From an uncultured virus (IMG/VR IMGVR_UViG_3300046692_000582) (taxonomy: Duplodnaviria; Heunggongvirae; Uroviricota; Caudoviricetes), in the IMG/VR virus record IMGVR_UViG_3300046692_000582: a stretch of DNA of 64,000 bases, one strand, 5' to 3'. The notes below the pieces were generated by a model. That model was not told where the DNA came from, did no database searches, and saw only the letters and a list, made by a program, of their open reading frames with translations. Of this stretch, positions 3,220 to 39,826 are shown piece after piece (the first letter of the stretch is position 1; the number at the start of each line of letters is the position of its first letter). The translations under genes and the position numbers were made by a program.

Positions 3220-3729
3220 ATGCACAACTTTAAAAATGGTCACCTGATCGTCGACGGCACAGCAATTAATGACCTGGACTTTTCTTCATTTCATGTGCTC
3301 ACCGATCTGTCGCAATGGTCCGATAAGTTTTGGATTGCGTTCAGGGCAGCAGTAGCTGAAGGTCACGATGTTTCCTTCAGTGAAATTGACATCAAAAATG
3401 TTAGACGCATTGAGGTTCTTGGTGCTGAATTTGAACTGTTGTTCAATCAGGCATATGAACGTATTTCGCTTGACGAAAGCATGAAAAAGCCAGTGGTCGT
3501 AGATAACAAATCGTACTCTATCATTATGATGTTTGACGTTTATCACACCGGCTGGGATTGTGATAATAAGGGCTATATCGTGGCAACGGATGCAGGGCCA
3601 AAGCTGGTGCTCACCGATCATGGCACTGAGTATTTCGCCTCGGCTAATGAGCTAAAATCGCACATTGCGAATTACCAGGATGCCATCAAAGACATGCAGG
3701 CAGCCATCGGGCTGATTGAGCCTCAATAA
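3220..3729 (+). CDS. hypothetical protein, paralog family A
   Basis: FDVYHTGWDCDNKGYIV..GPKLVLTDHG domain. Confidence 0.75.
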   Translation: MHNFKNGHLIVDGTAINDLDFSSFHVLTDLSQWSDKFWIAFRAAVAEGHDVSFSEIDIKNVRRIEVLGAEFELLFNQAYERISLDESMKKPVVVDNKSYSIIMMFDVYHTGWDCDNKGYIVATDAGPKLVLTDHGTEYFASANELKSHIANYQDAIKDMQAAIGLIEPQ

Positions 3730-3741
3730 AGGAGAGTTGTC

Positions 3742-4203
3742 ATGAAAAATTTGCTTAATGGCGTAGTTGTTTCCCTTCGGGCGTTCTGTTCCAAAGTTAT
3801 ATCTCTCAAAGAGAATGCACCTAATGGCAACTGGATTGACCTGAAAAAATTGAACGAGGATCCCGTTTTTTGCGCGGGCCTTAAAAAGCTATTGATCGAA
3901 CATATTAATCGATTGGCACTCGATACGAGCGTAGAGCAAGGTAATGACAAGAGCGTCATTGAAACAACCTACGTTTGGGAGGAGTGCTTCAAAGTCCATC
4001 GATCTTTTCCAATTTACAGTGAGGGATACGAGTTGAAGAACAAGGGATATGTTGTTTCAACGAAAGAGGGCCCGAAATTTGCCTTGCCTGGACATCTAAA
4101 TTGCTCTTTTGCAAAGATTGAGCAAGTAGAGGCGCTCATTCTTAAGGGCGATAAAGATAACGAAGAAATGAAAGCTGCCCTGGCATGGGTTAAGTCCCGG
4201 TGA
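3742..4203 (+). CDS. hypothetical protein, paralog family A (diverged)
   Basis: AAGGAG SD; FPIYSEGYELKNKGYVV..GPK. Confidence 0.7.
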   Translation: MKNLLNGVVVSLRAFCSKVISLKENAPNGNWIDLKKLNEDPVFCAGLKKLLIEHINRLALDTSVEQGNDKSVIETTYVWEECFKVHRSFPIYSEGYELKNKGYVVSTKEGPKFALPGHLNCSFAKIEQVEALILKGDKDNEEMKAALAWVKSR

Positions 4204-4460
4204 ATCGTTTTCGAACCCCTCTGTTGCGAACGGTATACGACTCGATGATGGCGCGCTATCAAGACCGCCATCGCGAGCTGTTTCTTCCGGATGGGGCAAC
4301 TCACAGAGGCAGTGGCCTTGCGCTGCATTTCTGGAATGGATTCGATGGCGTCAGCATGGGCGGTGGCTTTAAATCGCGATCTGAGCGGCAATCCCCTGCG
4401 TACGCAAGTTGGCGTGCAGGCCAGGATTGCAAGGCTCGTCAAATGTCACAGGAGGCGTAA
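4200..4460 (+). CDS. hypothetical protein
   Basis: GTGA coupling; 86 aa. Confidence 0.6.
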   Translation: MNRFRTPLLRTVYDSMMARYQDRHRELFLPDGATHRGSGLALHFWNGFDGVSMGGGFKSRSERQSPAYASWRAGQDCKARQMSQEA

Positions 4461-5227
4461 TGATGGAAATGACCAATGGAAATTTGATTGTGCAGGGTCA
4501 GCGACTCAGCGAGATCGATCTGGATGCCTACACCGACAGTGACCAGATTTTTTACTTGATTGGCGACATCTGGGCGGCAGTGGAAAAAGCTGAGGGTGCT
4601 GGTGAAATGCCAAAGCAGTCTGGCGATGAGTTGGCCGTGGTCTTTGGTCAGTCGTTTGCCGACAAAATCAGCGCCGTGCGTGAGCGACTGATTGAGGAGC
4701 GCGAATCACAAAAGCTGATTTGCGTGAAAGATATCGAGTACGCCCAAGCGCACCGCTTTCCAATTTACCGCGCAGGTTGGGAAATGGATGGCACCGGCTG
4801 GGTGGTCAAAACTGAATCTGGTTTGAAGCTGGTGATGAGCAATCACGGTCAGAATGCGTTTGTTGATGGCACGGCTCGCCTCAAGGAATTGATCGGCGGC
4901 TATGAGGACGTTATCAAAGGCATGGAGCTTGCCTTGCAGTATTTGGACACTCAAGAGCCACCAAAGCGTTTTGCCAAGGCTGCAATTGACGTCGATGGCA
5001 CGCAACGCAAGGTGATTCATGCTTTTGATGTGCTTTGGTCAGGCTGGGCCTCAGATACCAGGGGGTGGGTGGTTAAAATCGGGCAGATGCTGCGCTTGGT
5101 CATGAGCAGTCATGGCATGCGGGCTTTCTCATCGCCTGAGCAGCTGCACGGGCTCATTCAATCGTATCGCCGGGCCATTGAAGCCACTGACAAGGCAATT
5201 GCACTGTTGGACGTTACAGCGGCCTAG
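4460..5227 (+). CDS. hypothetical protein, paralog family A, two domain copies
   Basis: GGAGG SD; GWEMDGTGWVV..LVMSNHG and GWASDTRGWVV..LVMSSHG. Confidence 0.75.
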   Translation: MMEMTNGNLIVQGQRLSEIDLDAYTDSDQIFYLIGDIWAAVEKAEGAGEMPKQSGDELAVVFGQSFADKISAVRERLIEERESQKLICVKDIEYAQAHRFPIYRAGWEMDGTGWVVKTESGLKLVMSNHGQNAFVDGTARLKELIGGYEDVIKGMELALQYLDTQEPPKRFAKAAIDVDGTQRKVIHAFDVLWSGWASDTRGWVVKIGQMLRLVMSSHGMRAFSSPEQLHGLIQSYRRAIEATDKAIALLDVTAA

Positions 5228-5698: not shown

Positions 5699-5727
5699 TT
5701 GACATGACTGAATTGCAACACTAATAT
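5699..5727 (+). promoter_or_regulatory. sigma70 promoter of leader RNA copy A
   Basis: TTGACA 5699-5704, 17 bp, TAATAT 5722-5727. Confidence 0.7.
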
Positions 5728-5733
5728 TAATCC

Positions 5734-5907
5734 ATTGAATGGATTAATGCAGTCATGCATTAAGACAGCTTTGGCTAGGCGTAGTCACCCTGCTCCCTCT
5801 TTGAGGATGGTTAAAACGCGATTAAACACTCTCCCACATGAATGTCTTCCTGGCCCATGTTGGCGGTAATGAGCAGATCCGGCAAAACATGTGCAATGGA
5901 GCATTAC
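5734..5907 (+). ncRNA. candidate structured 5' leader RNA, copy A
   Basis: collinear homology and covarying stems with 22866-23048(-); shared GGCG tetraloop, GGTTAAAACG and GGCGGTAATGAG. Confidence 0.7.
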
Positions 5908-6792
5908 ATGAACCTAATTGACCGGCTTAATTCCCAAGAAGAGCTTTTTGCTTTTCGTGATCATCTCGCTAACGTCCTTTCTGAAAAGTTGAGTATTCCG
6001 CTTAAGGCGCGCAAGCTTGATGAGTTTGTTTCGGCTGTTGTAGGGGCGGTGAACTTTAACACCGCGTTGGGGATCGTTAATAAGCCCGTGACATCGACGA
6101 TGGATGTCGTAAGGAAATCTGCAATTTCCACAGACAGTAGGGAAAATCTTTTCTCTTCGTTCAATGTTCCTGATGACGTTAGCATTCTTGATGCCTTCTG
6201 GCCAACCAGGAACGACTTGGATGGAGTAACTACTTCAGTCGATGTGATTCATCGCCCAATCATTCAAGCTTTCTTGGTGACCAATGATAATTGCTTGCGC
6301 CAGGAGTTTGATGCAGAGCCGTTCTTTCGAGCGCAGCTCTTGACTGGTGATGAAGAACTTGCTGATACCATTGCTACGTTTATGGCGGCTCGATTCAGGG
6401 TTACTCATGAAGACCTGAATGTGCTTGATTGCCTTGGCCTTCAGAGGTTTGGAATCAATACTATTACAGAGTACGTAAAGTTGAAGGAGTATGTTTCGCC
6501 TACTGCTGAAGAAGCTCCGACCTTCAGTTGGCGCGGTTACTCTGATCGAAATTACGATTGCATCGTTGAGCATGCCTTTCTCATCCAATGGCTGGAAAGA
6601 TGGGGCTATGGAATAATGGCTGATTGGGTTAAATCCGACATGCTGGGGTTTGACTCAATCACCGCTTATCATGAAGACAGTGGTCAAGATCCTGATCTTT
6701 ATTCAAACGCGACTCGGGAAAAGATCATTAAAATGGACTGGCTCCTCAACCGCAAAAAACTCCAACGTCGAGCTAGGTCGATGAGCCGCTGA
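5908..6792 (+). CDS. leader-RNA-associated protein A; N-terminus resembles the PF20066 (Glyoxalase_8)-like helical domain
   Basis: GGAG SD 6 nt before ATG 5908; LKARKLDEFVSAVVGAVNFNTALG; paralog of 22035..22865. Confidence 0.75.
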   Translation: MNLIDRLNSQEELFAFRDHLANVLSEKLSIPLKARKLDEFVSAVVGAVNFNTALGIVNKPVTSTMDVVRKSAISTDSRENLFSSFNVPDDVSILDAFWPTRNDLDGVTTSVDVIHRPIIQAFLVTNDNCLRQEFDAEPFFRAQLLTGDEELADTIATFMAARFRVTHEDLNVLDCLGLQRFGINTITEYVKLKEYVSPTAEEAPTFSWRGYSDRNYDCIVEHAFLIQWLERWGYGIMADWVKSDMLGFDSITAYHEDSGQDPDLYSNATREKIIKMDWLLNRKKLQRRARSMSR

Positions 6793-6897: not shown

Positions 6898-6926
6898 TTG
6901 ACATTTGTACAAAATCTCAATATACT
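6898..6926 (+). promoter_or_regulatory. sigma70 promoter with TTTGTACAAA palindrome
   Basis: TTGACA-TTTGTACAAAATCTCAA-TATACT. Confidence 0.85.
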
Positions 6927-10435: not shown

Positions 10436-10912
10436 CTACAGGGCAGAGTGAGTCGCTGACTTGCTTTGCTCGTTGTAGAAATGGGCGATGAGATCATTTG
10501 ATATTGGCACATCGTAACCCGCAAATCTAATGGTATCTCTCCAGGGCGTTCCCTCTTTATGCATTGCTGCTGAAAGCGTGATCGCATCAAAACCGGCGTA
10601 TTTTTCGACGACCGACTGCATTACATCCTTTTCGTTTTCAGTGAATTGTCCAGTCCAGCGGTCAGCTTCTGGAATGGATGGAATGGGCTGCGAGCGGTGA
10701 TGGCGCACGGCGTTATAGAGGCAGAGCACAACAGGCCCGAACTCATAGGCCATGACCTGCTCATCGAGCAATGGCCTTCCATGCTTTCCGAGCATGTGGC
10801 CATGCGCGATGTAAGTCATCTTCAAAATTTTCATTGGTGTCGCGCTGGGCCGGGGAGAACTTTTGATCAGATCCAAAAGGTGTTGTGCAACAGCCAGTGA
10901 TTTTAGCCCCAT
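10436..10912 (-). CDS. Panacea/SocA (DUF4065) antitoxin-family protein
   Basis: TPMKILKMTYIAHG..AYEFGPVV..LSAAMHKEGTPW..ISNDLI pattern. Confidence 0.85.
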   Translation of the reverse strand: MGLKSLAVAQHLLDLIKSSPRPSATPMKILKMTYIAHGHMLGKHGRPLLDEQVMAYEFGPVVLCLYNAVRHHRSQPIPSIPEADRWTGQFTENEKDVMQSVVEKYAGFDAITLSAAMHKEGTPWRDTIRFAGYDVPISNDLIAHFYNEQSKSATHSAL

Positions 10913-10930
10913 GGTTATTCGCCTCCGCTC

Positions 10931-11209
10931 TTATTCAAAAGCCCAGTCTTGCCAGTCGTCATGTGTCACAACCTGCTCGCCAGCTTCAACCAGCTCGACT
11001 TCGCTGTATCCTCCGTCCGGGCTCACAGCATATGACGCAGCGATGCAAGCCTGCGAGAGCGTTGGAAAGACGGCAAGTGTGCGTTTTCCTGGATCATTAC
11101 GCTTCGCCGCTATGAGCGCTACTGGGCCGATATAGTCTTCGGGCAGTTCGGTTGTTGCGTAATCGCCACCAATTTCGTCTGGCTGCTTTCCGATTTTTCG
11201 TGTAGTCAT
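10931..11209 (-). CDS. hypothetical protein
   Basis: 92 aa ORF in the minus operon. Confidence 0.6.
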   Translation of the reverse strand: MTTRKIGKQPDEIGGDYATTELPEDYIGPVALIAAKRNDPGKRTLAVFPTLSQACIAASYAVSPDGGYSEVELVEAGEQVVTHDDWQDWAFE

Positions 11210-11269
11210 GCGTCGTTCCGTCCTAGAAAAATGAAGCACCAATACTGATGCTTCATGGTGGGGCTATTT

Positions 11270-11683
11270 TCAGTCTTCATCTGGAAGCATGATTGTCAGA
11301 ACCGGTTCGTGATTATCACCGGGATGACAGATCATCTTGAGCTTTACTTCCTGGGCTTCGGTAGAGCTTCCCTCCCGGTCGACTCGGGCCAAATCCACCA
11401 TGATCATGCTCCCTGGATTTTTGTGGCTCTTAATTGCGTAGTAGGACATGAACGCCACGTCCCAAAGCCGTCCGCTTTGATCTTGATAGGCGCCAGTTCT
11501 GTCACTGTCCGCGTCCGTCCATTCAACGCAGTCCATCCATGCCGCCCGAGTCATGGCCACTGGAAATTTAAATCCTGCCTCCCGAGCGATCTCGCTGATA
11601 TCCACGAGATCACCATCGGCGATCATTTGGGCGCGTGAATGGCTGGAAATTACGTCATCTGGGCCAAAAATCATGGCGTACAT
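11270..11683 (-). CDS. DUF6573-like plasmid/ICE protein
   Basis: SRAQMIADGDLVD..GFKFPVAMT..GRLWDV..EPVLTIMLPDED. Confidence 0.7.
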   Translation of the reverse strand: MYAMIFGPDDVISSHSRAQMIADGDLVDISEIAREAGFKFPVAMTRAAWMDCVEWTDADSDRTGAYQDQSGRLWDVAFMSYYAIKSHKNPGSMIMVDLARVDREGSSTEAQEVKLKMICHPGDNHEPVLTIMLPDED

Positions 11684-16636: not shown

Positions 16637-16984
16637 ATGAAGCTGACAAAGAAGCAATCTGCTGAGTACATGAAAAGCGCTTTGGAAATTCTGCGCAGCT
16701 TTGGTTTTCAGCAAGATGAGACTTCGGGTCATGAGTACAGTGCAGACACCATTGCCGGTAAGCTGCATGTGACGATCTACCCAGATTGGACGGCCTGTCG
16801 TTTTGATGACGTCAAAAAGGCTGTCGAGGTAACCCAGGGGGACCGGATTAATCCTCATTCGGGCAAATGGAATTGGATGGAGTTGACTGATTTGCCTTAT
16901 TTTCAAGCTGAGCTGCGCCGATTGATTGCAAACCCCGTCGCCAACCCAGAATTGCTGGCGATTCCCAAAAAATTTGATTCCTAA
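16637..16984 (+). CDS. hypothetical protein, tandem paralog 1
   Basis: DTIAGKLHVTI..SGKWNW; promoter TTGACA 16550/TATACT 16573. Confidence 0.7.
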   Translation: MKLTKKQSAEYMKSALEILRSFGFQQDETSGHEYSADTIAGKLHVTIYPDWTACRFDDVKKAVEVTQGDRINPHSGKWNWMELTDLPYFQAELRRLIANPVANPELLAIPKKFDS

Positions 16985-16996
16985 AATGAGCCTACT

Positions 16997-17359
16997 ATGA
17001 CCCTTAAAAGAACCCCTACCCTGACCCCTGAAGAATCGATTGTCTTCAAGGAAAATGTGCTTCGAGTGCTGCGCAAATTCGGTTTCCGTCGAGATGAATC
17101 GGGAATTCGAGATTACTGCCTGGATACCCCGGCAGGTAAGCTGCATGTGTCAATTCTCAGTCAGACATTGTCCTTTGATCTGCAAGAAAAAATTGACTCT
17201 CCTCGAACGATGGTTGACCGGGTGCACAGTTCTTTTTCGGGTAAGTGGGACTTTTTGGGGCCGGATATTTTGAATATGTTTGAGCATGACATGGAGCGCC
17301 TAATCTGCAATCCTGTGCCGACCCCTGACCTTGAACCGGTATGGCAGAATGTGGCCTGA
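16997..17359 (+). CDS. hypothetical protein, tandem paralog 2
   Basis: DTPAGKLHVSI..SGKWDF. Confidence 0.7.
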   Translation: MTLKRTPTLTPEESIVFKENVLRVLRKFGFRRDESGIRDYCLDTPAGKLHVSILSQTLSFDLQEKIDSPRTMVDRVHSSFSGKWDFLGPDILNMFEHDMERLICNPVPTPDLEPVWQNVA

Positions 17360-21391: not shown

Positions 21392-21476
21392 GCGCAGGTG
21401 GTGAAATTGGTAGACACGCAGCCTTGAGGTGGCTGTGCCGAAAGGCGTGAGGGTTCGAGTCCCTTCTTGCGCACCA
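21392..21476 (+). tRNA. tRNA-Leu (anticodon GAG)
   Basis: acceptor stem GCGCAGG/CTTGCGC, anticodon arm CAGCC-TTGAGGT-GGCTG, long variable arm, GGTTCGAGT T-loop, encoded CCA. Confidence 0.97.
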
Positions 21477-21903: not shown

Positions 21904-22034
21904 TTTTATGGTCAATCAACTACGTTTCTGCGCATCGACAAGGGCAATGGCCAGGGTTGTTAGAGAAGGAGTGGACGAGCGAGGAAGAAAGCGCTGGACA
22001 AATCCGAGGGAGCTTGGCTCCCTCGGTTCTTCGC

Positions 22035-22865
22035 TCACTTTCGGCCAAGGGAGTCAAGAAATTCTACAATCGCGCCCATCTGGGTTGAGTGCACGTCCTC
22101 GCCGATTTTCCCATTGTAGGACCATTGGAAGAGGAGGCCCCTGCGCCCTTCGTTTATGTGTTTGATCACAAACTCAGGTCCCATCATGTACTTGAAGGAG
22201 GCGATGTCCGGCTCATCATCGGAATGGTACAGGGCGTGACTGAACTCATCAACATACTCTTTGAAGCTGGTGACCGGATTAGGATCGTTACGCATCTCCA
22301 ATGCATCCAGCCAGCTCATCATCACTGTGAATCCGCGACTCATGAGCCAATCACGCAGCGCACCCCGATCAATGAAGACCTTGTAGGTGATGTTTTTCGC
22401 ATGGCATTCATCCAAAACGCCAGCAATGATCGCATTCGTTGGGCGTGCAAAGTTGGCTGCCCCAATGCCGGGTGCATTTTCTGGATGATCCAGCCAGGAA
22501 ATCATGAGGTGGAGGTGATTCATTTCTACGCAGTTGTTGAAGAACTCAACGGCGTCGAATGTTGTGGTGCGACCGGCGCCGTTATTGAAGCCGCCGACAC
22601 CTGTCATCAGGGTGGCTGGAATTTGGAAGTACAGCTCCCCTGCTTGCGGAATCACTACTGGGAGCGGGTCAGCAGGCGTAGGTACTTTTGCTGCACACAG
22701 GCCCATGGCCGTGTTGAAATCCGCTGCACCGGCCAATATGGCTGCCAGCTCGTCAACCTTACGAGGTTTGAGGGTCAACATCATTTTTTCAGCCATGACT
22801 TTTTTCACATGGTCACGAAAGTGCAGGAACTCGTCTTGCGATTCAAAGCGTTTGATCATGGTCAT
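22035..22865 (-). CDS. leader-RNA-associated protein B; paralog of 5908..6792
   Basis: GGAG SD; LKPRKVDELAAILAGAADFNTAMG; FDAVEFF; LRDWLMSRGF. Confidence 0.75.
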   Translation of the reverse strand: MTMIKRFESQDEFLHFRDHVKKVMAEKMMLTLKPRKVDELAAILAGAADFNTAMGLCAAKVPTPADPLPVVIPQAGELYFQIPATLMTGVGGFNNGAGRTTTFDAVEFFNNCVEMNHLHLMISWLDHPENAPGIGAANFARPTNAIIAGVLDECHAKNITYKVFIDRGALRDWLMSRGFTVMMSWLDALEMRNDPNPVTSFKEYVDEFSHALYHSDDEPDIASFKYMMGPEFVIKHINEGRRGLLFQWSYNGKIGEDVHSTQMGAIVEFLDSLGRK

Positions 22866-23048
22866 GCTCATTCTCCAGTGCACGCTGATTGTCGGTTCCA
22901 CTCATTACCGCCTGCATGCTTGAGGAAAAAAGCAAGAAAGGAGGAGGATGCAATCCACGTTTTAACCGTCCATCAATGATGGTGAGTGGGGCAGCTTCGC
23001 CAAGCTATCATTGTCCTAAGCTGAACTTGTCAGTCAGTCCTGTTTGAT
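22866..23048 (-). ncRNA. candidate structured 5' leader RNA, copy B
   Basis: homologous to 5734-5907 with compensatory changes; promoter TTGACA(23078-23083)-17-TATTGT. Confidence 0.7.
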
Positions 23049-23131
23049 GGGCTTACAATAGCAGCACCAGCGCTCTCTGTCAACCACAGTGACATTTGTT
23101 AAAATTAAATGAAGAAGAAGTGTTTTTGTCA

Positions 23132-23160
23132 TTGACAGATAAAGTGTATTTTTGTACAAT
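23132..23160 (+). promoter_or_regulatory. sigma70 promoter with TTTGTACAAT overlapping the -10 box
   Basis: TTGACA-17-TACAAT. Confidence 0.75.
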
Positions 23161-23197
23161 TTTGGAACTCAAGCAGCATTACCTACGAGGATTTAGC

Positions 23198-23431
23198 ATG
23201 ACCCAGTCTACCGTTGAGCACACGCTAATTGTCCCGCCGACTTATGTCGCAGAAATCATTGGCGTCAAGCTGATTCGCGTGGGCCCGCGTAAGGTCTGGG
23301 CAACGCTCCAGAATGGCGCTGTCATCAGCGTGAAGCGCAAAGACGTGGCCACCGAGTTGGAAGGTGATTTCTTGCCCTTGGCCAACAAAGTGATCACTCA
23401 ATACCGGGAAGATAAAGCAAAGGCTGCGTAA
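23198..23431 (+). CDS. small hypothetical protein
   Basis: GAGG SD after the promoter. Confidence 0.6.
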   Translation: MTQSTVEHTLIVPPTYVAEIIGVKLIRVGPRKVWATLQNGAVISVKRKDVATELEGDFLPLANKVITQYREDKAKAA

Positions 23432-26311: not shown

Positions 26312-26575
26312 ATGGAAACACCAATAATGAGTATGCGTGTCGCCCCCGAGATGCGGCAGCTATTTGACCGGGCGGCTGATATTCTCGGTAAGAACCGTAC
26401 GGATTACATGCTCGGTGTTTGCGTACAGGACGCCAAAAATGTGATTCTAGATCAGTGCCACTTCACCCTTCGTGACGAAGAATTTGATCGATTTACCGCT
26501 GCACTGGAGGCATCTGAAGATCATCCAAACGAAGCTCTGTTGGCCCTTCTCAGCCGTCCATCGCGCTGGTCGTAA
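26312..26575 (+). CDS. DUF1778 (TacA/AtaR-type) RHH antitoxin
   Basis: MRV..LFDRAADILGKNRTDYM..FTLRDEEFDRFTAALE..PNEALLALL. Confidence 0.85.
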   Translation: METPIMSMRVAPEMRQLFDRAADILGKNRTDYMLGVCVQDAKNVILDQCHFTLRDEEFDRFTAALEASEDHPNEALLALLSRPSRWS

Positions 26576-26603
26576 GTCCCTCCTTAAGTCTTCTGGATAT
26601 CTC

Positions 26604-27080
26604 ATGTCGAGTCTTGCACAAGTAAAGTGGCGGTCAGCGGCATTCATGGCGCCAGTGGTTCTCGAAAAAGAGCATGCAACGGGAGCGTTCAACTCTGGTG
26701 ACCCAGAAATGGACAATTGGTTGAAAACTGATGCCCTGCCCGCTCAGAACAATCGCGCTGGAATGACCTATGTAGTTCAGGATTTACTGGGGGAAATTGC
26801 CGGTTTTTACCGTATTTCTTCAGGATCCGTTGAGTGCCGAGATCGGATTGTGCCCGCCCTGGTACTCAATCGCATTGCGGTTGATACGGAATGCGTTGAC
26901 GATGATTTGTACTCAATGCTGCTGGCCCATGCCTTGGTCAAGTCGTTGCGACTGGCACAGCTCAATGGTGCACGACTGTTGATCGCAAGTGATCTTAATC
27001 CGGCCCGAATTTTTACTGAAAACAATCTCGCGTGGGAAAAAATCGGTGGCCTTTATTGCCTGCCGATCCCAGCGCTTTAA
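26604..27080 (+). CDS. TacT/AtaT-type GNAT toxin, degenerate
   Basis: FNSGDPEMDNWLK, IAGFY, PALVLNRIAVD; acetyl-CoA Gly motif absent. Confidence 0.75.
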   Translation: MSSLAQVKWRSAAFMAPVVLEKEHATGAFNSGDPEMDNWLKTDALPAQNNRAGMTYVVQDLLGEIAGFYRISSGSVECRDRIVPALVLNRIAVDTECVDDDLYSMLLAHALVKSLRLAQLNGARLLIASDLNPARIFTENNLAWEKIGGLYCLPIPAL

Positions 27081-27110
27081 CCCTACATGCCCATTACTGG
27101 AGCTGCGTTG

Positions 27111-27563
27111 ATGAGTTCAATTGTTGAGATTTTTACCGATGGCGCCTGCAAGGGAAACCCAGGCCCAGGCGGTTGGGGTGCCTTCCTGCTGTGCAACGGG
27201 GTTGAAAAGGAGTTGTGGGGCGGCGAAGCAGATACCACCAACAACCGTATGGAGCTGTTGGGTGCAATTAATGGCCTCGCGGAGCTGAAACGGCCTTGCG
27301 AAGTGGTTCTAACCACCGATTCGCAGTACGTGATGAAAGGCATCAACGAGTGGATGGCTAACTGGAAAAAACGTGGCTGGAAGACCGCCAGCAAGGAACC
27401 GGTGAAGAACGCCGACCTGTGGAAGTTGCTCGATGAGCAGGTTAATCGGCACACTGTGACCTGGAAGTGGGTGAGAGGCCACACGGGGCACCATGGCAAC
27501 GAAAAGGCTGACCAACTGGCCAACCGTGGAGTTGACGATGTGCGCGCAGCAAAACGCGTCTGA
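27111..27563 (+). CDS. rnhA: ribonuclease HI
   Basis: [44 protein letters not shown]. Confidence 0.97.
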
Positions 27564-27924
27564 TCTCTGGATGACGAGGATTCTTTATGCGCGATAATAA
27601 TGACGACGATGATAACGACATGTTTGATCCAGAAGATCGCGAATGCAAACATGATATTCTGCTGAGCGAGTGTCACGAATGCCAGGATCACCTTGATAAT
27701 CTGGCGGAGCGTCACCGTGAACAGGCGGATTGGAACTTCTTTCATTCCGATTAAATGACCTGCCGAATTCCTGTCGATCACCCTAAATAGGCCGCTCAAA
27801 AAGCGGCCTATTTATTTTCAATCTATCTATAGACGACCCATTATTTTGCAAATATTATGTCGCTTATACCAAGCAAACAGCCACATATAGGCTGTAGCTC
27901 TTATAAGACGAAGGACGATGTAAT

Positions 27925-28545
27925 ATGAATTCAAGAGATTTGATCAAAGACCACGTGCTGCTCAATGTAACTGATCGCGTGAAAGAGCTGTTTGAACTTG
28001 GAACTCTTGAGCAAGAAAAGAATTTTGATGGGAAATTCAACTGCAAGCGCGCTCTCCGTGAAAATGGCTGGGTTTGGGACGAAGTCGGAGAGTACTTTTT
28101 TAGCGCAGGTGGTGGAACCAGCTTTGCGGAATTTGAACGTGACCTGTGTGAAGATCTGGGCCTGATCCCTGCTGAGCACTTTACGCTGCCATTGGAGTAC
28201 CACCTTGTAAGTCCACTACTGGCGGAAGCGCTGCTCAATCGCCGCGAGACTGTACTGTCACCGGCAGGCACGGACGAGCAGTTTTGGGGGCGCATGGCGA
28301 CCAATCGTGCGATTCACCTTGATCCTATCATTCGCTCCATTGCCGAACTGATGGACGCAGTGGATCTCTCATATGTTGAGGACTCTGAGCTGGTTGATCT
28401 GGATCTTGAGGATGAAACCGTGGTGGCCAGCGATACCCGAGACAATGACGAATCTTCTGAAGACATCCCTGATGACGAGGATGAGGATGAGGATGAGGAT
28501 GAGGAATCAGATTCAGCTCAATCGGAAAAGGCATTCGTGGCCTAA
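27925..28545 (+). CDS. hypothetical protein with an acidic tail
   Basis: AAGGA SD; DE-repeat C-terminus. Confidence 0.7.
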   Translation: MNSRDLIKDHVLLNVTDRVKELFELGTLEQEKNFDGKFNCKRALRENGWVWDEVGEYFFSAGGGTSFAEFERDLCEDLGLIPAEHFTLPLEYHLVSPLLAEALLNRRETVLSPAGTDEQFWGRMATNRAIHLDPIIRSIAELMDAVDLSYVEDSELVDLDLEDETVVASDTRDNDESSEDIPDDEDEDEDEDEESDSAQSEKAFVA

Positions 28546-28555
28546 TTCTATGGAC

Positions 28556-28588
28556 ATAAAAAGCCCAGGCAGCGCCTGGGCTTTTTAT
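28556..28588. terminator. bidirectional terminator
   Basis: ATAAAAAGCCCAGGC-agc-GCCTGGGCTTTTTAT between convergent genes. Confidence 0.85.
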
Positions 28589-28597
28589 TTGCGGTGA

Positions 28598-29629
28598 TCA
28601 GTAACCCCGGTGATTCATTAGGCGTCCCCAGGCGTTCACCAGTGCAGTCTCCAGAACGGTCGTGGCCGTCAGCCCCATGCGATTCATCAGGCCCTTGGTC
28701 TTCGGCGCCTTGTAGGTCAGAAGAAGCAGATCACGCGATTTTGCACATTTGGCCAAGTATTCATCACTGGTGCCGATTTCATCGGACAGATTCTTATCAA
28801 TGGCTTCCAGACCGAACCACGCTTCACCGGTCGACACATCTTCGATGTTCACGGATGGGCGATATTGTGTGACATGAGTTTTGAACAGTTCGTGGACGGT
28901 ATTGATCTCTTGCTGGAACTTTTCTCGACCGGCAACCGTGTTTTCACCCATGGTGGTCAGGGTTCGCTTGTGCGCGCCAGCGGTCATCAACTCAACATCA
29001 ATTTCATGCTTTTTCAGCAGGCGATTAATGTTCGGAATTTGCGCCACGACACCAATAGAGCCCAAAACTGCAAAAGGAGCGCTGATGATTTTGGTGCCAA
29101 TACTGGCCATCATGTACCCGCCGCTGGCTGCAATTTTGTCAACGCAGATGGTCAGGGGGATGCCCGCATCACGAATGCGCGCCAATTGACTAGAAGCAAG
29201 GCCATAAGCATGTACCGCGCCACCTGGAGATTCCAGTCGGACAACGACTTCATCTTTGTTCGTGGCATTGCCAAGCAACGCGGTGACTTCGTGCCGCAGG
29301 TTTTCTAGACTGGAGGCTTGGGTATCCCCAACGAAGTCCAAAACAAAAACACGAGTCTTTTCAGGCTCGCTGACTTTCTGTTTTTTTGCCAATTTCTCGG
29401 CTTTTTTGAGTGCTTTGAAATCCGCACTTTCAAACCGGGAATGCGTAATGGCGTCGTGCAGATGCTTATAAAAATCGTTGAGGGAAGTCACCTTCAACGT
29501 GCCGGTTTTCTTGTTTCCACCCTTGATAAACGACCCGGTTATGATCGCAGCCACAACAATAAAGGCAATGACAAACGTGATGGTTTTGGCGAGAAAGCCC
29601 GCGTAGCTATACAGAAATTCCAAAGTCAT
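28598..29629 (-). CDS. sohB: SohB, S49-family protease
   Basis: N-terminal TM helix, RLESPGGAVHAYGLASSQL, AASGGYMMA, GSIGVV, TAGAHKRTLT. Confidence 0.93.
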   Translation of the reverse strand: MTLEFLYSYAGFLAKTITFVIAFIVVAAIITGSFIKGGNKKTGTLKVTSLNDFYKHLHDAITHSRFESADFKALKKAEKLAKKQKVSEPEKTRVFVLDFVGDTQASSLENLRHEVTALLGNATNKDEVVVRLESPGGAVHAYGLASSQLARIRDAGIPLTICVDKIAASGGYMMASIGTKIISAPFAVLGSIGVVAQIPNINRLLKKHEIDVELMTAGAHKRTLTTMGENTVAGREKFQQEINTVHELFKTHVTQYRPSVNIEDVSTGEAWFGLEAIDKNLSDEIGTSDEYLAKCAKSRDLLLLTYKAPKTKGLMNRMGLTATTVLETALVNAWGRLMNHRGY

Positions 29630-29745
29630 ATCCTTGTAAAAGAAAAGCGCGCAAGGAGTGCGCGCTGTATTTGGCTTAAATTATAGTAAGCAACACTGAC
29701 ATTTGTCAATATTATTGTACGAAACTCAAGTCCATGGACCCCGCC

Positions 29746-30549
29746 TTACATTTCAAAAAATGACGACATGTCAAAGGCGCGGGGCTTAGAAAGCCTTGGT
29801 TGCTCGGGGATTGGATTGCCAACAAAGCCGGGCTGGTAGGTGAACAGATCGTTCTCAAGGCGGTACGAAACGGCATCAAGCTTCATAACATCGCCGCTTT
29901 GAATGGATCGGACTTCAGTCACGCCCGGCTCCAATTTAACAAAGGGCATTTCGTACCAGGGCTTGATGGTGTTGCTGTTAAAGTGATCCTGACCAATTAG
30001 CTGTACGGTCTTGCAGTCCAGTTCATGAACAAACTTGGTTGGAATGGTGATTTCTGCAACCTTCTTGAAGTAGCCCTGCTCATCAAGTTGTTTGGTCGCT
30101 TCATAATTGCCAGCCTGCACTTTTTCAACCAGCTTGTCATCCGGTGCCAAGGGGTCGTGCTGATAAATACTGATGGTTTGTGTGTACAGTTCCTGAACAG
30201 CTTTGTCGAACAGAGAAGCTTTGTCAGGGCTAAAGCCAAACGCACCTTCTGCCAGCAATGCAACTTTCTGAAGCATGCTCACCAGCTCTGGCGAAGATTC
30301 TTGTTGAACATAACGAAGGTTCAGGTTCCCAGAGACAAGACGCCGTGCCACAGAAATTTCTTCTGGCTCATGATCTTTAACTTTAGCTACGTACTGACTG
30401 GCGGTATCAGTTGTATTGTCCGTGAGAAAATAACGCACAATGGGTCCATTCTTTTCGTCCGCAGAAACATGGCGAGTATGTGCTTGACCATTGACCAAAC
30501 TTAATTTTACAAGGTCGATGATTTCTTGAATTTCTTGATGTTGGCTCAT
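29746..30549 (-). CDS. hypothetical protein, tandem paralog
   Basis: EPEEISVARRLVSGNLNL..PELVSMLQK. Confidence 0.7.
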   Translation of the reverse strand: MSQHQEIQEIIDLVKLSLVNGQAHTRHVSADEKNGPIVRYFLTDNTTDTASQYVAKVKDHEPEEISVARRLVSGNLNLRYVQQESSPELVSMLQKVALLAEGAFGFSPDKASLFDKAVQELYTQTISIYQHDPLAPDDKLVEKVQAGNYEATKQLDEQGYFKKVAEITIPTKFVHELDCKTVQLIGQDHFNSNTIKPWYEMPFVKLEPGVTEVRSIQSGDVMKLDAVSYRLENDLFTYQPGFVGNPIPEQPRLSKPRAFDMSSFFEM

Positions 30550-30609
30550 TAAATGCCCCTGTCTTTTTGTACATTATAGCACGATGACCGTGGCTTCAAA
30601 AAACAGGCA

Positions 30610-31341
30610 TTAATTAAAGCTTGGACCTGAAAACGCTAATTGTGCAATTAATATCTTTGGATCATACAACCCAACAAACTTTTTCAATTTCCTTCCCTCT
30701 CGGCAATAAGCCATTCCATCTACTTTGATAACATCGGCCCATGAGGGGCGCCTTAATTTTGTGCTGTTTGGAATCTGTTGAAGTTCCTTATTGGCATATG
30801 CCTTCTCTAAGGCAATCCGATATGTATCGCGATGATTGAGTTGGTCCAGCATGGCATACGTTCCGACATGCTGATAATAACCGAGTCGATCCAGCTTGTT
30901 GATTTCTCTGGGATGACCCCACGGGTGGTGCTTAATCACCTTGTTGATCAATGCTTTTCGCTCATCCAAAACATAGACGTCAATGTTTTTTCCATAAATG
31001 CTCCAGACGGCCTCATTGAACATGGACTTGTCCAAAATGGTTTGTAGGCTTTCATCACGGGACAACTCTTCAATTTTTCTCAATGAATTAACAAGCTCGG
31101 GATTTAGCTCTTCCGCAATTCGATCCAGGTCCAGACGCCCTGCCAATAAGCGTCGGGCAATGGCCACTGCTTTCGGTTCTTCTGGTCGCAGATCACAAGC
31201 GTATTTAAGTGACTTATTGCTGTTGGACAGGCAAAACAAAACCTGTTCATCGCGTTTTTTAAGAGAAGGAGCTTGAGTCCATGCCAACTCACTGGACAGG
31301 CAGTTTGAAACAAGTTCAATGGCGTCTTTGATTGCTTGCAT
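30610..31341 (-). CDS. hypothetical protein, tandem paralog
   Basis: EPKAVAIARRLLAGRLDL..PELVNSLRK. Confidence 0.7.
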   Translation of the reverse strand: MQAIKDAIELVSNCLSSELAWTQAPSLKKRDEQVLFCLSNSNKSLKYACDLRPEEPKAVAIARRLLAGRLDLDRIAEELNPELVNSLRKIEELSRDESLQTILDKSMFNEAVWSIYGKNIDVYVLDERKALINKVIKHHPWGHPREINKLDRLGYYQHVGTYAMLDQLNHRDTYRIALEKAYANKELQQIPNSTKLRRPSWADVIKVDGMAYCREGRKLKKFVGLYDPKILIAQLAFSGPSFN

Positions 31342-31445
31342 GAAATTACTCTCCTGGGTAATCCATTATACCATTCAATATTAATTAACTAAAAACAAAG
31401 CCCGCATCGAGGCGGGCTTTGTGTTAAATCGGTTAAATTTTGAAA

Positions 31446-31781
31446 TCAATCGTTCGGGTACAAATCGTCGTCATCGTCACTGCCAGGACGAATCAAGCTC
31501 CATGGGATCACGATTTGGTCATCCACCACCTCGAAGCCACTGTTATTGTTCATTACATAGGCCTGACGCAACGTGCCCTCTTCAATATCGACGTAGTATT
31601 CAATGTCGAAATCTGGATTCGAATGGAAGGCCTTGTAAATGGAGCTGGACTCTTCACCGAATTCAGAGCCCTGAATTCGAAAGTCTTCCCACTCCAGTTT
31701 AGTCGGCCCGTTATCCTGATTCGGGTCTACTGGCACTTCTACTTCGACCCGAACATCAATATAACCTTCAAGACTCATCAT
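31446..31781 (-). CDS. acidic hypothetical protein
   Basis: GGAGG SD; hairpin 31398-31420 downstream. Confidence 0.65.
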   Translation of the reverse strand: MMSLEGYIDVRVEVEVPVDPNQDNGPTKLEWEDFRIQGSEFGEESSSIYKAFHSNPDFDIEYYVDIEEGTLRQAYVMNNNSGFEVVDDQIVIPWSLIRPGSDDDDDLYPND

Positions 31782-31887
31782 TGCCTCCGGTACTGGATAG
31801 GAGATGCATTATCGCGATAACACATCATAGGTCGGAAAGGGCTGATGTCAAAAATGGCTTCAGCAAACGCTGAAATACACTCACTGA

Positions 31888-32083
31888 CTATTCTCCCTGG
31901 GTGGATTGCAGAAAGGCAGCTATTTCATCGGATGACAGAATTCGAGATTCCACATGGCGAATCGAGTTGTCCGACATGATTTCAATATAGCGCCACTTGG
32001 TGCTTTCAATTTGTTGCCCAGGCTCAAGCGCTAGGGCCCAATAAGGAAATCGTTTTTTTCACGGTGAGCTGTTGTTGGACCAT
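31888..32083 (-). pseudogene. small gene broken in an A7 run
   Basis: promoter, GGAGAGG SD, MVQQQLTVKK, then a one-base shift into RFPYWALALEPG...QGE*. Confidence 0.45.
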
Positions 32084-32722
32084 GACAAAGAACCTCTCCG
32101 CTGATGTTTGCCGGGTCGGTGATCATAAAGCCCCGCTCTGGGATGTCAATGCGAATTCATCGGTCAAAGCGGTCACAATGAGGTCGTAGGCATGGGCCTG
32201 TCATTGGGGCCATTTACTCATTGCGTGCTCAATGGAAGAGACTGACATTGATATGTGTATAGACTTGCCGTCTCAGTCGGTCAGAGCGCTGTTGCGAGCG
32301 TGTCAGAGGATGAAGAGGCAGAACCCAGATCGTCCGCACTGGAAAAGTCGTGTGTGAGCCTTGCAGCTCGATTGGAGTCGCTTCGCCACAGCAACTGCTG
32401 GAAAGGCAGTGGTGCTGTATATGTATCCTTCAGCAATCTGTTCTGCGTCTGAGGATTAATCGGGTGAGTGTCTTTCGGAGTAATGGCAACCAGATTCAGA
32501 TAGAGTACGGACGATGATCTTGAATAACCTAATTTTAGCCACAATTTCAAGCGATTCCCATGCATCGAGTAATGCCTAGTATATCAATGCCGGTGCCGGT
32601 GCCTTAATCGGCAATCTACTACATCGCTCCGTTGTCGCGGAATATCCCAGTGTTTACGTCTTCCTTAGTGGCAATCATGAGCTTGGTCTTATATAATTTT
32701 TCAAACTTATGGAAAACCACCT

Positions 32723-33571
32723 ATGCATGCATATCTCTCTCTTCTTTTAACTGTAGCCGTATTTGCTTGCGGTGCATTAGCGCTGATCGACATCTTCATC
32801 TTGGCTCCTCGCAGGAAAGCCGCAATTGCTAAATACCAGAGTATCGTAACAACGCAGGATGCTGGTGCACTGGAAAAGCTTCGTCACACTCCAGCTGTAT
32901 TTAAGTTAGGAAAGGCATATTTTCCCGTACTGGCTATCGTCTTTCTGATTCGCTCATTCGTGGCAGAACCTAACGTAATTCCTTCAGGATCGATGATACC
33001 AACGCTTGAGATTGGCGATTTCATATTGGTCAACAAGTTTGCTTATGGAATTAGGCTGCCTGTAATCAACAAGAAGGTAATACCGATTGGCGATCCTCAA
33101 CGCGGAGATGTAATGGTCTTTCGTTTTCCATCCGATCCAAGCGTGAACTACATCAAACGAGTCATTGGGCTTCCTGGTGACAGGATTCGCTATACTTCTG
33201 ATAAGCACCTATTTGTGAATGATCAGTTGATCACTGATGACCTCATCAGCACCTACTCTGACAGCATAATGGGAAAGATTGATGTCTTCAAAGAGAAGAT
33301 TGGCAACGCTGAACATCTGATTCATAAGTCGATGCGTGCAACACCAGCAGGAGAGTGGGCTGTTCCAGAAGGACATTATTTCATGATGGGAGATAATCGC
33401 GATAACTCCAATGATAGCCGGTTCTGGGATGACCCGAGCATACCCAAGGAAATATTGGGCATGGTTCCTGACAAAAACATTGTGGGTAAAGCCTCACTTG
33501 TTTTGTTTAACTGGCCAAATCCGAAGCTTAGCCATCTGCCAACGCTTTCGAGTGCAGGCCTGATCAAATAA
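32723..33571 (+). CDS. lepB: signal peptidase I
   Basis: two TM helices, IPSGSMIPTL (Ser), YIKRVIG (Lys), MMGDNRDNSNDSR. Confidence 0.96.
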   Translation: MHAYLSLLLTVAVFACGALALIDIFILAPRRKAAIAKYQSIVTTQDAGALEKLRHTPAVFKLGKAYFPVLAIVFLIRSFVAEPNVIPSGSMIPTLEIGDFILVNKFAYGIRLPVINKKVIPIGDPQRGDVMVFRFPSDPSVNYIKRVIGLPGDRIRYTSDKHLFVNDQLITDDLISTYSDSIMGKIDVFKEKIGNAEHLIHKSMRATPAGEWAVPEGHYFMMGDNRDNSNDSRFWDDPSIPKEILGMVPDKNIVGKASLVLFNWPNPKLSHLPTLSSAGLIK

Positions 33572-35715: not shown

Positions 35716-35997
35716 TCAGTGAGAAGCGACTGGTGCGGCCAGGGAGCCCACTGGTAGTTCAATGGACATGACATTACCAGATTTGTGCTGCTCGATGGAC
35801 TTAGTCAGGCGCTCAGCATTGGCTGGAGACTTCATCAAGTGCTCGGTCTCTTTCATGCTGTTGTACGTGGCCAGTGAAATGAGCACAACTGGCTCACCGC
35901 TTGGACGGGTGATGACGAGTGGCTCGCCTGAGGCGCAAACATCGTCCATGTGTTGCTTCAGGTTGGCGCGTGCGACGCTGATTCGTACAGTTTCCAT
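35716..35997 (-). CDS. yefM: YefM/Phd-family antitoxin
   Basis: ARANLKQHMDDV..PLVITR..VVLISL..ETEHLMKSPANAERLTKSI. Confidence 0.88.
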   Translation of the reverse strand: METVRISVARANLKQHMDDVCASGEPLVITRPSGEPVVLISLATYNSMKETEHLMKSPANAERLTKSIEQHKSGNVMSIELPVGSLAAPVASH

Positions 35998-39103: not shown

Positions 39104-39709
39104 TCAGGGCTGCTTGTTCAACTCTTCCAGGTTGCGCTGAGCCTTTTCCAGGGCGGCTTCCGCGTCTTTGACCTGCTTAACTCGCTTCTCTTCAGCAAGT
39201 TTGCGGTAGAGATCATTGAGGAAATCCTCAATAAGCACCGGATAGTTATCCGCATGGAGCCAGTGCTCTGGGATTAGGAAATCCATCTTGTCGACACCGC
39301 CGTTGTAGATGAACTCCATTTCCAGATGCTCACCCCCCTCTTTGTGGTTGGGGTAGTGCTCGACAATATGACCACCAGAAGACCAGTTGTGGCATTCGGG
39401 GTGGGCAAGCGGGCGTTGTTCTATCGGGGTGTTGTAGTGATAAGTCGGGGCCAGCAACTTGGCAATGTCACGTACGCGTTCGGCGCGACGTTCATTTTCC
39501 AGGCGTGGGTTCAATTGGGCGTTCAGCTGCGCAATTTGTCGCTGAAGCTCCTGTACCTCATTGTCGTGCGCTACAGCTTGCTCCGCAGCCATTTCAGCGG
39601 CGGCATGGCGGGCGGTCTTGTGACCAAGCTTATAAGCCAAATTTTCGGCTTCCGTCGCAAACTCAGGATTGGCCTGAAGGTGCATGATGTTGTCATGAAG
39701 CTTGCTCAT
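39104..39709 (-). CDS. hypothetical coiled-coil protein, tandem paralog
   Basis: LLAPTY..HPECHNW..FLIPEHW. Confidence 0.7.
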   Translation of the reverse strand: MSKLHDNIMHLQANPEFATEAENLAYKLGHKTARHAAAEMAAEQAVAHDNEVQELQRQIAQLNAQLNPRLENERRAERVRDIAKLLAPTYHYNTPIEQRPLAHPECHNWSSGGHIVEHYPNHKEGGEHLEMEFIYNGGVDKMDFLIPEHWLHADNYPVLIEDFLNDLYRKLAEEKRVKQVKDAEAALEKAQRNLEELNKQP

Positions 39710-39826
39710 TTGATGTCCTTTCCGCATGGCGCTGAACTGTTGTTTGTTGAGAACAGGCGTTTTAACCTTTCCTGAGTATTATTATTTTAGCCAACACCAT
39801 CAAAGGTGTCAATGGCGTAAACACTT

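Follow-up and report, generated by a model that had tools for sequence, protein, structure and literature searches.

A conserved leader precedes three members of a megaplasmid gene family

The window analysed here is the whole 64,000-nucleotide stretch recorded in IMG/VR as IMGVR_UViG_3300046692_000582, from an uncultured virus, and its replicon is a Pseudomonas-type megaplasmid. It carries two genes of an uncharacterised family in two cassettes, copies A and B, which have a promoter, leader blocks and the gene family in common; a third cassette lies on the Pseudomonas plasmid pBASL58. We propose that the cassettes share a conserved, pseudoknotted 5′ messenger RNA (mRNA) leader that acts in cis to control translation of this megaplasmid gene family, a reading to which we assign a probability of roughly 60%. 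Copy B occupies the minus strand, with a promoter at 23083-23055, a leader of about 183 nt at ~23048-22866 and a gene at 22865-22035, whose Shine-Dalgarno (SD) sequence GGAG (22873-22876) stands 7 nt ahead of the ATG at 22865. Copy A lies on the plus strand, with its promoter at 5699-5727, its leader at 5734-5907 (SD at 5898-5901) and its gene at 5908-6792.

The leaders of copies A, B and pBASL58 can be aligned along their entire length in the same element order. The two blocks singled out by the first-pass annotation are exact in copy B, GGTTAAAACG at 22958-22967 (minus) and GGCGGTAATGAG at 22901-22912 (minus), and copy A repeats both without a mismatch, at 5809-5818 and 5862-5873 (plus), respectively. 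These 10- and 12-nt blocks are kept although the two encoded proteins are only 29% identical overall in a multiple alignment. Because neutral upstream DNA would be expected to be unalignable at such protein divergence, the leader appears to be under selection. The same divergence qualifies the earlier idea that an intact promoter-RNA-gene cassette had been duplicated: two copies do stand in the window and a third on another megaplasmid, but the duplication is ancient, not recent.

A search of the window for further copies, which the first-pass annotation had advised for the whole replicon, matched the hairpin loop plus 10-mer pattern twice, compared with 0.00 matches over 100 shuffles. A covariance model of the leader (R1) likewise found two copies in the 64-kb window (187.3 bits for copy B and 164.4 bits for copy A) and one in the 904-kb pBASL58, each directly ahead of a family gene. 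By this model, the leader precedes all three genes there that have the family's N-terminal domain and occurs nowhere else in the 64 kb and 904 kb. A third exact GGTTAAAACG at 39758-39767 (minus) scored only 5.3 bits with R1 (E 8.4) and is probably a chance match; it lies just downstream of a promoter-like TTGACA-17-TAAAAT site, in the 5′ region of the open reading frame (ORF) at 39104-39727.

A predicted long-range pseudoknot in the leader

Piecewise folding gave the same order of elements in each leader: P1, P2, a linker, P3, a 12-mer, a variable stretch, a pyrimidine tract and P5 (copy B coordinates below are on the minus strand, those of copy A on the plus strand). P1 (23016-23037) is a hairpin of variable sequence that holds the same place in all three leaders. 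P2, which had been noticed at 22992-23007 from the first, is indeed a 6-base-pair (bp) hairpin, UAGCUU-GGCG-AAGCUG, whose GGCG loop is invariant and whose stem is 100% paired across the leaders, with two pairs changed on both sides (copy A, 5772-5787). P2 contains UUGGCG in copy B and pBASL58 and UAGGCG in copy A. P3 (22970-22982; copy A, 5796-5806), CCAUC-AUU-GAUGG in copy B, is a 4-5-bp hairpin that every leader has in this position, always ending 2 nt short of the 12-mer, and its stems are unrelated among them (CCUC/GAGG, CCAUC/GAUGG and GACC/GGUC). The invariant 12-mer, GGUUAAAACGUG at 22956-22967 (copy A, 5809-5820), has the consensus GGUUMAAACGYG and forms, with the GGCG loop, the conserved unpaired bases of the leader. 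P4 (22946-22956, GGAU-UGC-AUCC) is a small variable hairpin, replaced by a different one in pBASL58 and without a clear counterpart in copy A. Last comes P5 (22862-22937), a long hairpin with the SD and start-codon region paired at its base (P5a), GCAUGC/GCGUGC in mid-stem (P5b) and GGCGGUAAUGAG at its apex.

The best-supported structural feature is a pseudoknot that the first-pass annotation had missed. In this 6-bp helix the linker that follows P2 would meet the P5 apical loop, some 85-95 nt away, by pairing CCACUC (22984-22989) with GAGUGG (22898-22903) in copy B, CUGCUC (5790-5795) with GAGCAG (5871-5876) in copy A and CCGCCC with GGGCGG in pBASL58. It is Watson-Crick in 18 of 18 alignment cells, that is, in all three leaders, and three of its six pairs covary. 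An exhaustive scan of the alignment identified P2 and the pseudoknot as the sole 6-column helices paired in every leader, and none of 200 column-shuffled alignments contained any such helix.

The fold was also evaluated by RNAalifold, which predicted 44 pairs for the three leaders, 15 of them with compensatory changes, and by pair counts on the same alignment. By the latter, P5a and P5b (helices 3 and 4 of the count) were 87.5% and 94.4% paired. Taken together, P2, the pseudoknot, P5a and P5b were paired in 94.9% of 78 cells, compared with 37-45% when the partners were slid by 1-3 columns, and eight pairs were changed on both sides versus 0-2 in the slid controls. None of 500 shuffles reached the observed percentage paired and a single one reached the covariation score. 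The fold, drawn from three independent leaders, is provisional; we regard the leader with its covarying pseudoknot as a candidate new structured RNA, for which the evidence of selection and of several helices is good for so few examples.

Covariation also bears on whether the conserved blocks might instead be DNA operator sites for a transcription factor. The blocks lie near a strong promoter, and each leader contains several CATG palindromes (GCATGC occurs twice in pBASL58, for example) of the kind that such a factor might recognise. However, DNA binding needs no compensatory changes, and these preserve pairing across 85-95 nt as well as in P2 and P3. Moreover, every block falls downstream of the inferred transcript start, and copy B retains the outer P5 pairing without a CATG on its 5′ side. 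We consider an operator function highly improbable.

The ribosome-binding site is predicted to be closed

The pyrimidine-rich region at 22917-22947 had been read as a single loop of ~30 nt, closed by P5, that would either occlude its own GGAG or serve as an exposed guide for other mRNAs. Both quoted loop sequences are present, but a single loop is not what the fold suggests. The 3′ half of the tract (UUUUUUCC in copy B) is the 5′ strand of the SD-sequestering helix, and only the 5′ half (CCUCCUCC in copy B, CUCUCCC and CCUCUCUUCC in the other two leaders) is predicted to be open, with unpaired probabilities of 0.78, 0.58 and 0.67 among the three leaders, against leader means of 0.38-0.44. The occlusion itself is supported by our analysis, as RNAalifold and the pair counts both place UUUUCC/CUUCC opposite the cassette's own SD, with the 3′ half alone as the pairing strand; over all the predictions made, the SD had an unpaired probability of 0.06-0.30. 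At 37 °C the predicted unpaired probability was low for the SD (0.055 in copy A, 0.14 in copy B and 0.28 in pBASL58) and 0.028, 0.38 and 0.004, respectively, for the AUG. Between 15 and 45 °C, with the pseudoknot ignored, the SD value stayed at 0.05-0.10 in copy A and 0.27-0.29 in pBASL58 and fell from 0.66 to 0.05 in copy B; in these models, temperature alone does not appear to open the SD.

The promoters complete this picture. As the first-pass annotation had it, copy B has TTGACA (23083-23078) and, after a 17-nt spacer, a TG-extended TATTGT (23060-23055) on the minus strand, matching the consensus at 10 of 12 positions; copy A has TTGACA and TAATAT at the same spacing, pBASL58 is arranged likewise, and the score is 10/12 in all three cassettes. 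A promoter scan of 22700-23250 returned three promoter-like sites where 0.7 were expected. Judged by their sequences, all three promoters are near-consensus sigma-70 sites and are probably strong. Near-perfect sigma-70 promoters (11/12 matches) also flank the cassettes, at 6898-6926 (plus) for the gene after copy A and at 23132-23160 (plus), divergent from copy B, and strong consensus promoters are seemingly common on this element.

A strong promoter, a closed ribosome-binding site and invariant unpaired bases upstream of it lead us to read the element as a translational control leader. The near-consensus promoter would yield a transcript with ~180 nt before the start codon, and P5, by pairing the SD and AUG region with the CU-rich strand, would keep the ribosome-binding site closed by default. 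The pseudoknot between the P5 apical loop and the post-P2 linker would then tie this expression hairpin to an upstream domain (the P2 GGCG loop, P3 and the 12-mer) that may act as a sensor. Binding of a factor, whether a protein, a small RNA or a small ligand, to the conserved unpaired bases could shift the balance between closed and open ribosome-binding sites, and translation would stay low until then. The open CU-rich stretch 5′ of P5 might provide an alternative anti-SD strand or a ribosome standby site.

That open stretch is also the basis of the second idea in the first-pass annotation, an exposed guide for other mRNAs: the leader might be, or give rise to, a trans-acting small RNA with a CCUCC-like anti-SD stretch that pairs with their ribosome-binding sites. 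Such a role would suit a tract that is mostly unpaired in its 5′ half in three leaders and that varies between copies while the scaffold is fixed. However, the tract runs on into the strand opposite the cassette's own SD, the scans showed neither a terminator nor a processing signal between leader and gene, and a standby site would be just as likely to show an open CU-rich stretch beside a closed ribosome-binding site. A trans-acting small RNA is therefore very unlikely in our estimation.

Several observations weigh against cis-acting translational control or against the fold behind it. Single-sequence folding energies were no better than those of shuffles (z = +0.60 for copy B and -0.61 for copy A), and the energy models used ignore pseudoknots. 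Copy B has competing folds, and adding 30 nt of coding sequence shifts its minimum-energy fold and leaves the AUG only partly paired. The register of P5 differs slightly between copies A and B, and 4 of the 78 counted cells are unpaired. Covariation rests on three leaders, since searches of large collections gave no more; R1 and the pair counts were built on these same three, and the shuffle and slide controls are not probabilities. The transcript start of copy B is deduced from the -10 box. Finally, the one contig from an RNA library, considered next, ends at 23017, and as a metatranscriptome may hold DNA it is no proof of transcription.

A near relative conserves the upstream leader

A relative, ~95% identical, was found in contigs of one RNA and one DNA sequencing run, with the metatranscriptome contig spanning 22638-23017; three further runs contain only small shares of the stretch. 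Over the 228 coding bases covered, the relative differs from copy B at 13 positions, 12 of them third codon positions. In contrast to these 12 changes in 76 third positions, a single change occurs in 125 leader bases (22893-23017; Fisher p = 4e-5), and over the whole covered leader the ratio is 6/152 versus 12/76 (p = 0.003). The single upstream change falls at 22950, in the loop of P4, and the remaining five cluster at 22877-22892. All six spare P2, P3, the 12-mer and the pseudoknot strands. Of the clustered five, one converts a U.G pair of P5b to U-A, and two neighbouring ones replace CCGAC by CCGUU in the 3′ strand of a small apical stem, where pairing with GGCGG would, as we read it, persist. 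Of the other two, one is immediately 5′ of the SD and one breaks a predicted G.U pair.

Comparison with known RNA control systems

The leader belongs to no catalogued RNA family that we could detect. With Rfam 15, a transfer RNA (tRNA) was the only match in the whole window, and copy B gave no match at E up to 10; hits of copy A to SAM/SAH riboswitches and to Zeta-pan (E 1.3, 13-16 bits against gathering scores of 40-57) were dismissed as noise. Translational riboswitches and other SD-sequestering leaders nonetheless offer a parallel, in that they combine a conserved upstream domain with invariant unpaired bases, a helix pairing the SD and start codon and a linking pseudoknot. The predicted expression platform, which pairs the SD and start codon, is a feature of translational riboswitches present here. 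The difference is that the present leader matches no Rfam 15 family and is known from three examples.

A further comparison is with the Frpo-type single-strand promoters of plasmid leading regions, in which a hairpin itself forms the promoter on the transferred strand and all copies lie on one strand. Copies A and B are on opposite strands, and in each the conserved blocks follow a conventional duplex promoter; we rejected this assignment.

The nearest known mechanism, by analogy, is control of the replication initiator in IncI-alpha and IncB plasmids, to which the present leader is somewhat similar without being a member. In the rep leaders of these plasmids a GGCG loop forms a pseudoknot with a CGCC beside the ribosome-binding site, and a 5′-rUUGGCG-3′ loop motif is named in the title of a paper cited by PMC10724649. 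The repZ/repA leaders of IncI-alpha (ColIb-P9), IncB (pMU720) and IncL/M share with ours a plasmid setting, a long structured leader, a closed ribosome-binding site, an upstream (U)UGGCG hairpin and a long-range pseudoknot of a loop with a single strand. In contrast, the pseudoknot found here pairs the post-P2 linker with the SD hairpin's apex, not GGCG with CGCC; there is no conserved leader peptide; and the gene, present in at least two paralogues per replicon, is not a replication initiator. According to the relevant passages of PMC8053102, an antisense RNA of IncI-alpha/IncB plasmids binds the mRNA leader and prevents the pseudoknot required for initiator translation.

By this precedent, the leader could be the target of a trans-acting or antisense RNA, with the exposed (U)UGGCG loop of P2 as a kissing site and the pseudoknot as an activating fold that the regulator RNA prevents. 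The plasmid-borne, long leader with its closed ribosome-binding site and loop-to-linker pseudoknot would fit, as would UUGGCG in copy B and pBASL58 and UAGGCG in copy A, and the passages cited above describe just such a block of the translation pseudoknot on the rep mRNA leader of IncI1/IncB plasmids. However, the GGCG loop takes no part in the pseudoknot, and no CGCC lies near the SD of copy A or B. A consensus scan, which is weak and cannot exclude one, found no sigma-70-like site or terminator of an antisense gene opposite either leader. No complementary copy of GGCGGTAATGAG within one mismatch occurs elsewhere in the window, nor was a second complementary copy of the conserved leader blocks found there. 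The conserved AUG in AAUGRG, which might open a leader peptide, precedes the start codon by 39 nt, in frame, in copy A and pBASL58 and by 40 nt, out of frame, in copy B; the peptides read from it are unrelated, and no conserved leader peptide was found among the three leaders. As the genes are also not replication initiators, we consider regulation by a trans-acting or antisense RNA unlikely.

The leader accompanies the N-terminal domain of the protein family

The gene of copy B encodes 276 amino acids (aa): residues 1-60 form a helical domain, an FDAxxYF...W domain occupies the middle and an alpha-beta3-alpha unit the C-terminus. That of copy A encodes 294 aa of the same family. BLASTP aligned the two at the N-terminus (28/66 identities, E 1e-16) and in a second segment (7/28, E 0.023) that includes LRDWLMSRGF/LIQWLERWGY, and FDAVEFF/FDAEPFF falls within a block of columns conserved across the family. 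The similarity beyond the N-terminus, previously noted by eye, is therefore real but weak. A family hidden Markov model (HMM) matched only the two genes within the window.

With an E threshold of 1e-3, a profile search of 1.84 billion representatives returned 65 proteins, of which 38 passed 1e-10 and 11 passed 1e-30; many of the 65 lie on contigs of 0.9-1.06 Mb. The N-terminal domain occupies residues 1-60 in nearly all of these cluster representatives, and no other part of the protein is as well conserved (42-54% identity). A second conserved block, FDAxxYF ... W, follows it in the sequence. Close relatives found by a word-indexed search (five at E 1e-3 or below) reside on contigs of 0.94-1.14 Mb, one of them from Pseudomonas syringae pv. 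actinidiae. Among annotated plasmids, only the 904-kb pBASL58 of Pseudomonas sp. Leaf58 has a homologue of the N-terminal domain, and tblastn with the proteins of copies B and A and a further family protein (P0003) matched pBASL58 only. The family gene of pBASL58 (130724-131944) lies two genes downstream of one annotated as RtcB family (RNA ligase), and a lytic transglycosylase gene is next. The middle block alone was matched by tblastn, using two family members, on Vibrio plasmids of 0.88-0.94 Mb and on large plasmids of Azospira, Acetobacter, Azonexus and others. The leader is absent from the two such loci examined, on the Vibrio parahaemolyticus 882-kb plasmid and an Azospira plasmid (1465-1980 and 1270-2319 of the respective extracted loci).

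pBASL58 belongs to the pMPPla107 megaplasmid family, as stated in PMC6482414, and the main text of that paper contains none of the terms 'UTR', 'noncoding' or 'paralog'. Megaplasmids of the pMPPla107/pBASL58 type, ~1 Mb in size, carry mostly genes of unknown function, and their regulation is almost uncharted. If the candidate leader is real, it would offer a handle on regulation of this family and add a new SD-sequestering leader architecture whose trigger, be it a protein, a small RNA or a ligand, standard genetics could seek.

One candidate trigger is the N-terminal domain itself. Under autoregulation, this 60-residue helical domain would act on its own mRNA, contacting the leader's conserved unpaired bases to repress or activate translation. 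The leader's presence at all three loci with the N-terminal domain and absence from both middle-domain-only loci examined would follow, as would the strong conservation of a domain that is always N-terminal in the 65 representatives. With so few loci, however, co-inheritance explains the pattern equally well. Modelled alone, the domain is a small helical bundle (predicted local distance difference test, pLDDT, 87.8) for which structural searches were uninformative (best Z 4.2, Foldseek E above 4), and it matched no RNA-binding family. Autoregulation is decidedly unlikely by our assessment. Going further, leader and domain could constitute an RNA-protein feedback module, in which a new RNA-binding fold reads the GGCG loop and 12-mer to gate its own translation and which was possibly fused to varied C-terminal domains across megaplasmids; this we offer as a long shot. 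Faint, below-threshold signs liken the domain to small proteins of phages and plasmids, and if it were the trigger, a function could be assigned to a small domain with possible phage and plasmid relatives.

Pairing of the 12-mer or the P2 loop with the coding region was considered as well and rejected: the best site lies at nt 155 in copy A and pBASL58, copy B differs, and the energies were no better than those of shuffled queries (fractions 0.05, 0.5 and 0.455).

Annotation of the protein yielded little. Neither protein A nor B matched Pfam at E up to 1, and no match to a family protein was found in Pfam, PHROG, PADLOC or Protein Data Bank (PDB) sequences, apart from a single PADLOC row (HEC-01A, E 0.0097) that we took as noise. 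A language-model search with the whole protein gave no usable match. Of 60 family members, 15 matched Pfam PF20066 (Glyoxalase_8) at positions ~4-62 at E up to 0.1 (best 7.6e-4), and no other Pfam family was matched by more than two; a language-model search with residues 1-62 returned small PF20066-labelled clusters (score 0.84), which is only a lead. None reached the curated cut-off of 23.7 bits (best 20 bits), protein B gave no match, and its model has no glyoxalase/VOC fold after the N-terminal domain. Our literature search retrieved no paper mentioning PF20066 or Glyoxalase_8.

An AlphaFold model of protein B was obtained with a mean pLDDT of 90.6 and a predicted template modelling (pTM) score of 0.70. 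Foldseek found no match at E 0.001 or below for this model or that of the N-terminal domain, and in a structural search of protein B against representatives no chain reached Z 5. About half of the 50 structural matches listed were double-stranded RNA-binding domains (dsRBDs), from PKR, DRB3, ADAR1, Dicer and RNase III, aligned to residues ~213-276 at Z 3.2-4.5. The likeness lies in the alpha-beta-beta-beta-alpha unit at residues 213-276 (22035-22226, minus), but the Z scores are below the range deemed meaningful and Pfam dsrm gave no match at E up to 1, so we treat this modelled resemblance as a lead, not a finding. Because the C-terminal unit is missing from copy A and pBASL58, it cannot explain the shared leader.

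Wider searches for the leader

Beyond pBASL58, no additional cassette emerged from pattern and similarity searches. Scanning genome, metagenome and viral contigs for protein patterns brought no confirmed relative, and nothing relevant turned up when the cassette or the leader was compared by blastn with plasmids and phages. The DNA pattern of hairpin plus 10-mer matched 37 stretches of genome contigs, from unrelated taxa and none in Pseudomonas; by our arithmetic, chance alone would give several tens. A stricter three-block pattern had no match in metagenome and viral contigs; it demanded TAATGAG, which lies at a non-homologous place in pBASL58, and relatives without TAATGAG would escape it.

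The 3′ ends and surrounding genes

The first-pass annotation had described a GC hairpin and pyrimidine-rich tail behind both window genes. Both are there: copy B has CCGAGGGAG-CCAAG-CUCCCUCGG at 22004-22026 (minus) followed by AUUUGU, and a C-rich, G-poor tail at 21955-21997 (minus) that reaches 78% pyrimidine in 40 nt. Across the two genes the tails are 78-80% pyrimidine, with 18 C and 4 G, and 19 C and 5 G, in 40 nt, and 0.2% of 40-nt windows across the 64 kb reach 75%. Neither hairpin, in copy A or in copy B, passed a strict terminator scan. The third cassette, in pBASL58, ends instead in a hairpin and T run without a pyrimidine tail, which places the tail outside the conserved module; a Rho-utilisation-like region is a plausible, ordinary reading of it.

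The window as a whole has a G+C content of 48.7%, and its ORFs are mostly without a Pfam match. Its only tRNA, a tRNA-Leu (anticodon GAG) at 21392-21476 (plus), lies ~560 bp past the 3′ end of copy B and fits the tRNA-rich megaplasmids pMPPla107 and pBASL58. Directly upstream of copy A, adjacent plus-strand ORFs at 3220-3729, 3742-4203 and 4409-5227 repeat GW..D..GYVV.T..GPKLVL..HG, twice in the last, and apparently form a further paralogous family. Two tandem ORFs at 16637-17359 (plus), of 115 and 120 aa, are clearly alike and share ...FGF..DE.....Y..DT.AGKLHV.... Toxin-antitoxin-like parts occur at 10436-11683 (minus), 26312-27080 (plus) and 35716-35997 (minus), comprising a SocA/Panacea domain gene near a DUF6573 gene, a TacA-like antitoxin overlapping a 202-codon ORF and a Phd/YefM antitoxin. 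Housekeeping-type genes lie at 27087-33571, among them RNase H (27087-27563), an S49 peptidase of the SohB type (28598-29629) and an S26 signal peptidase (32723-33571).

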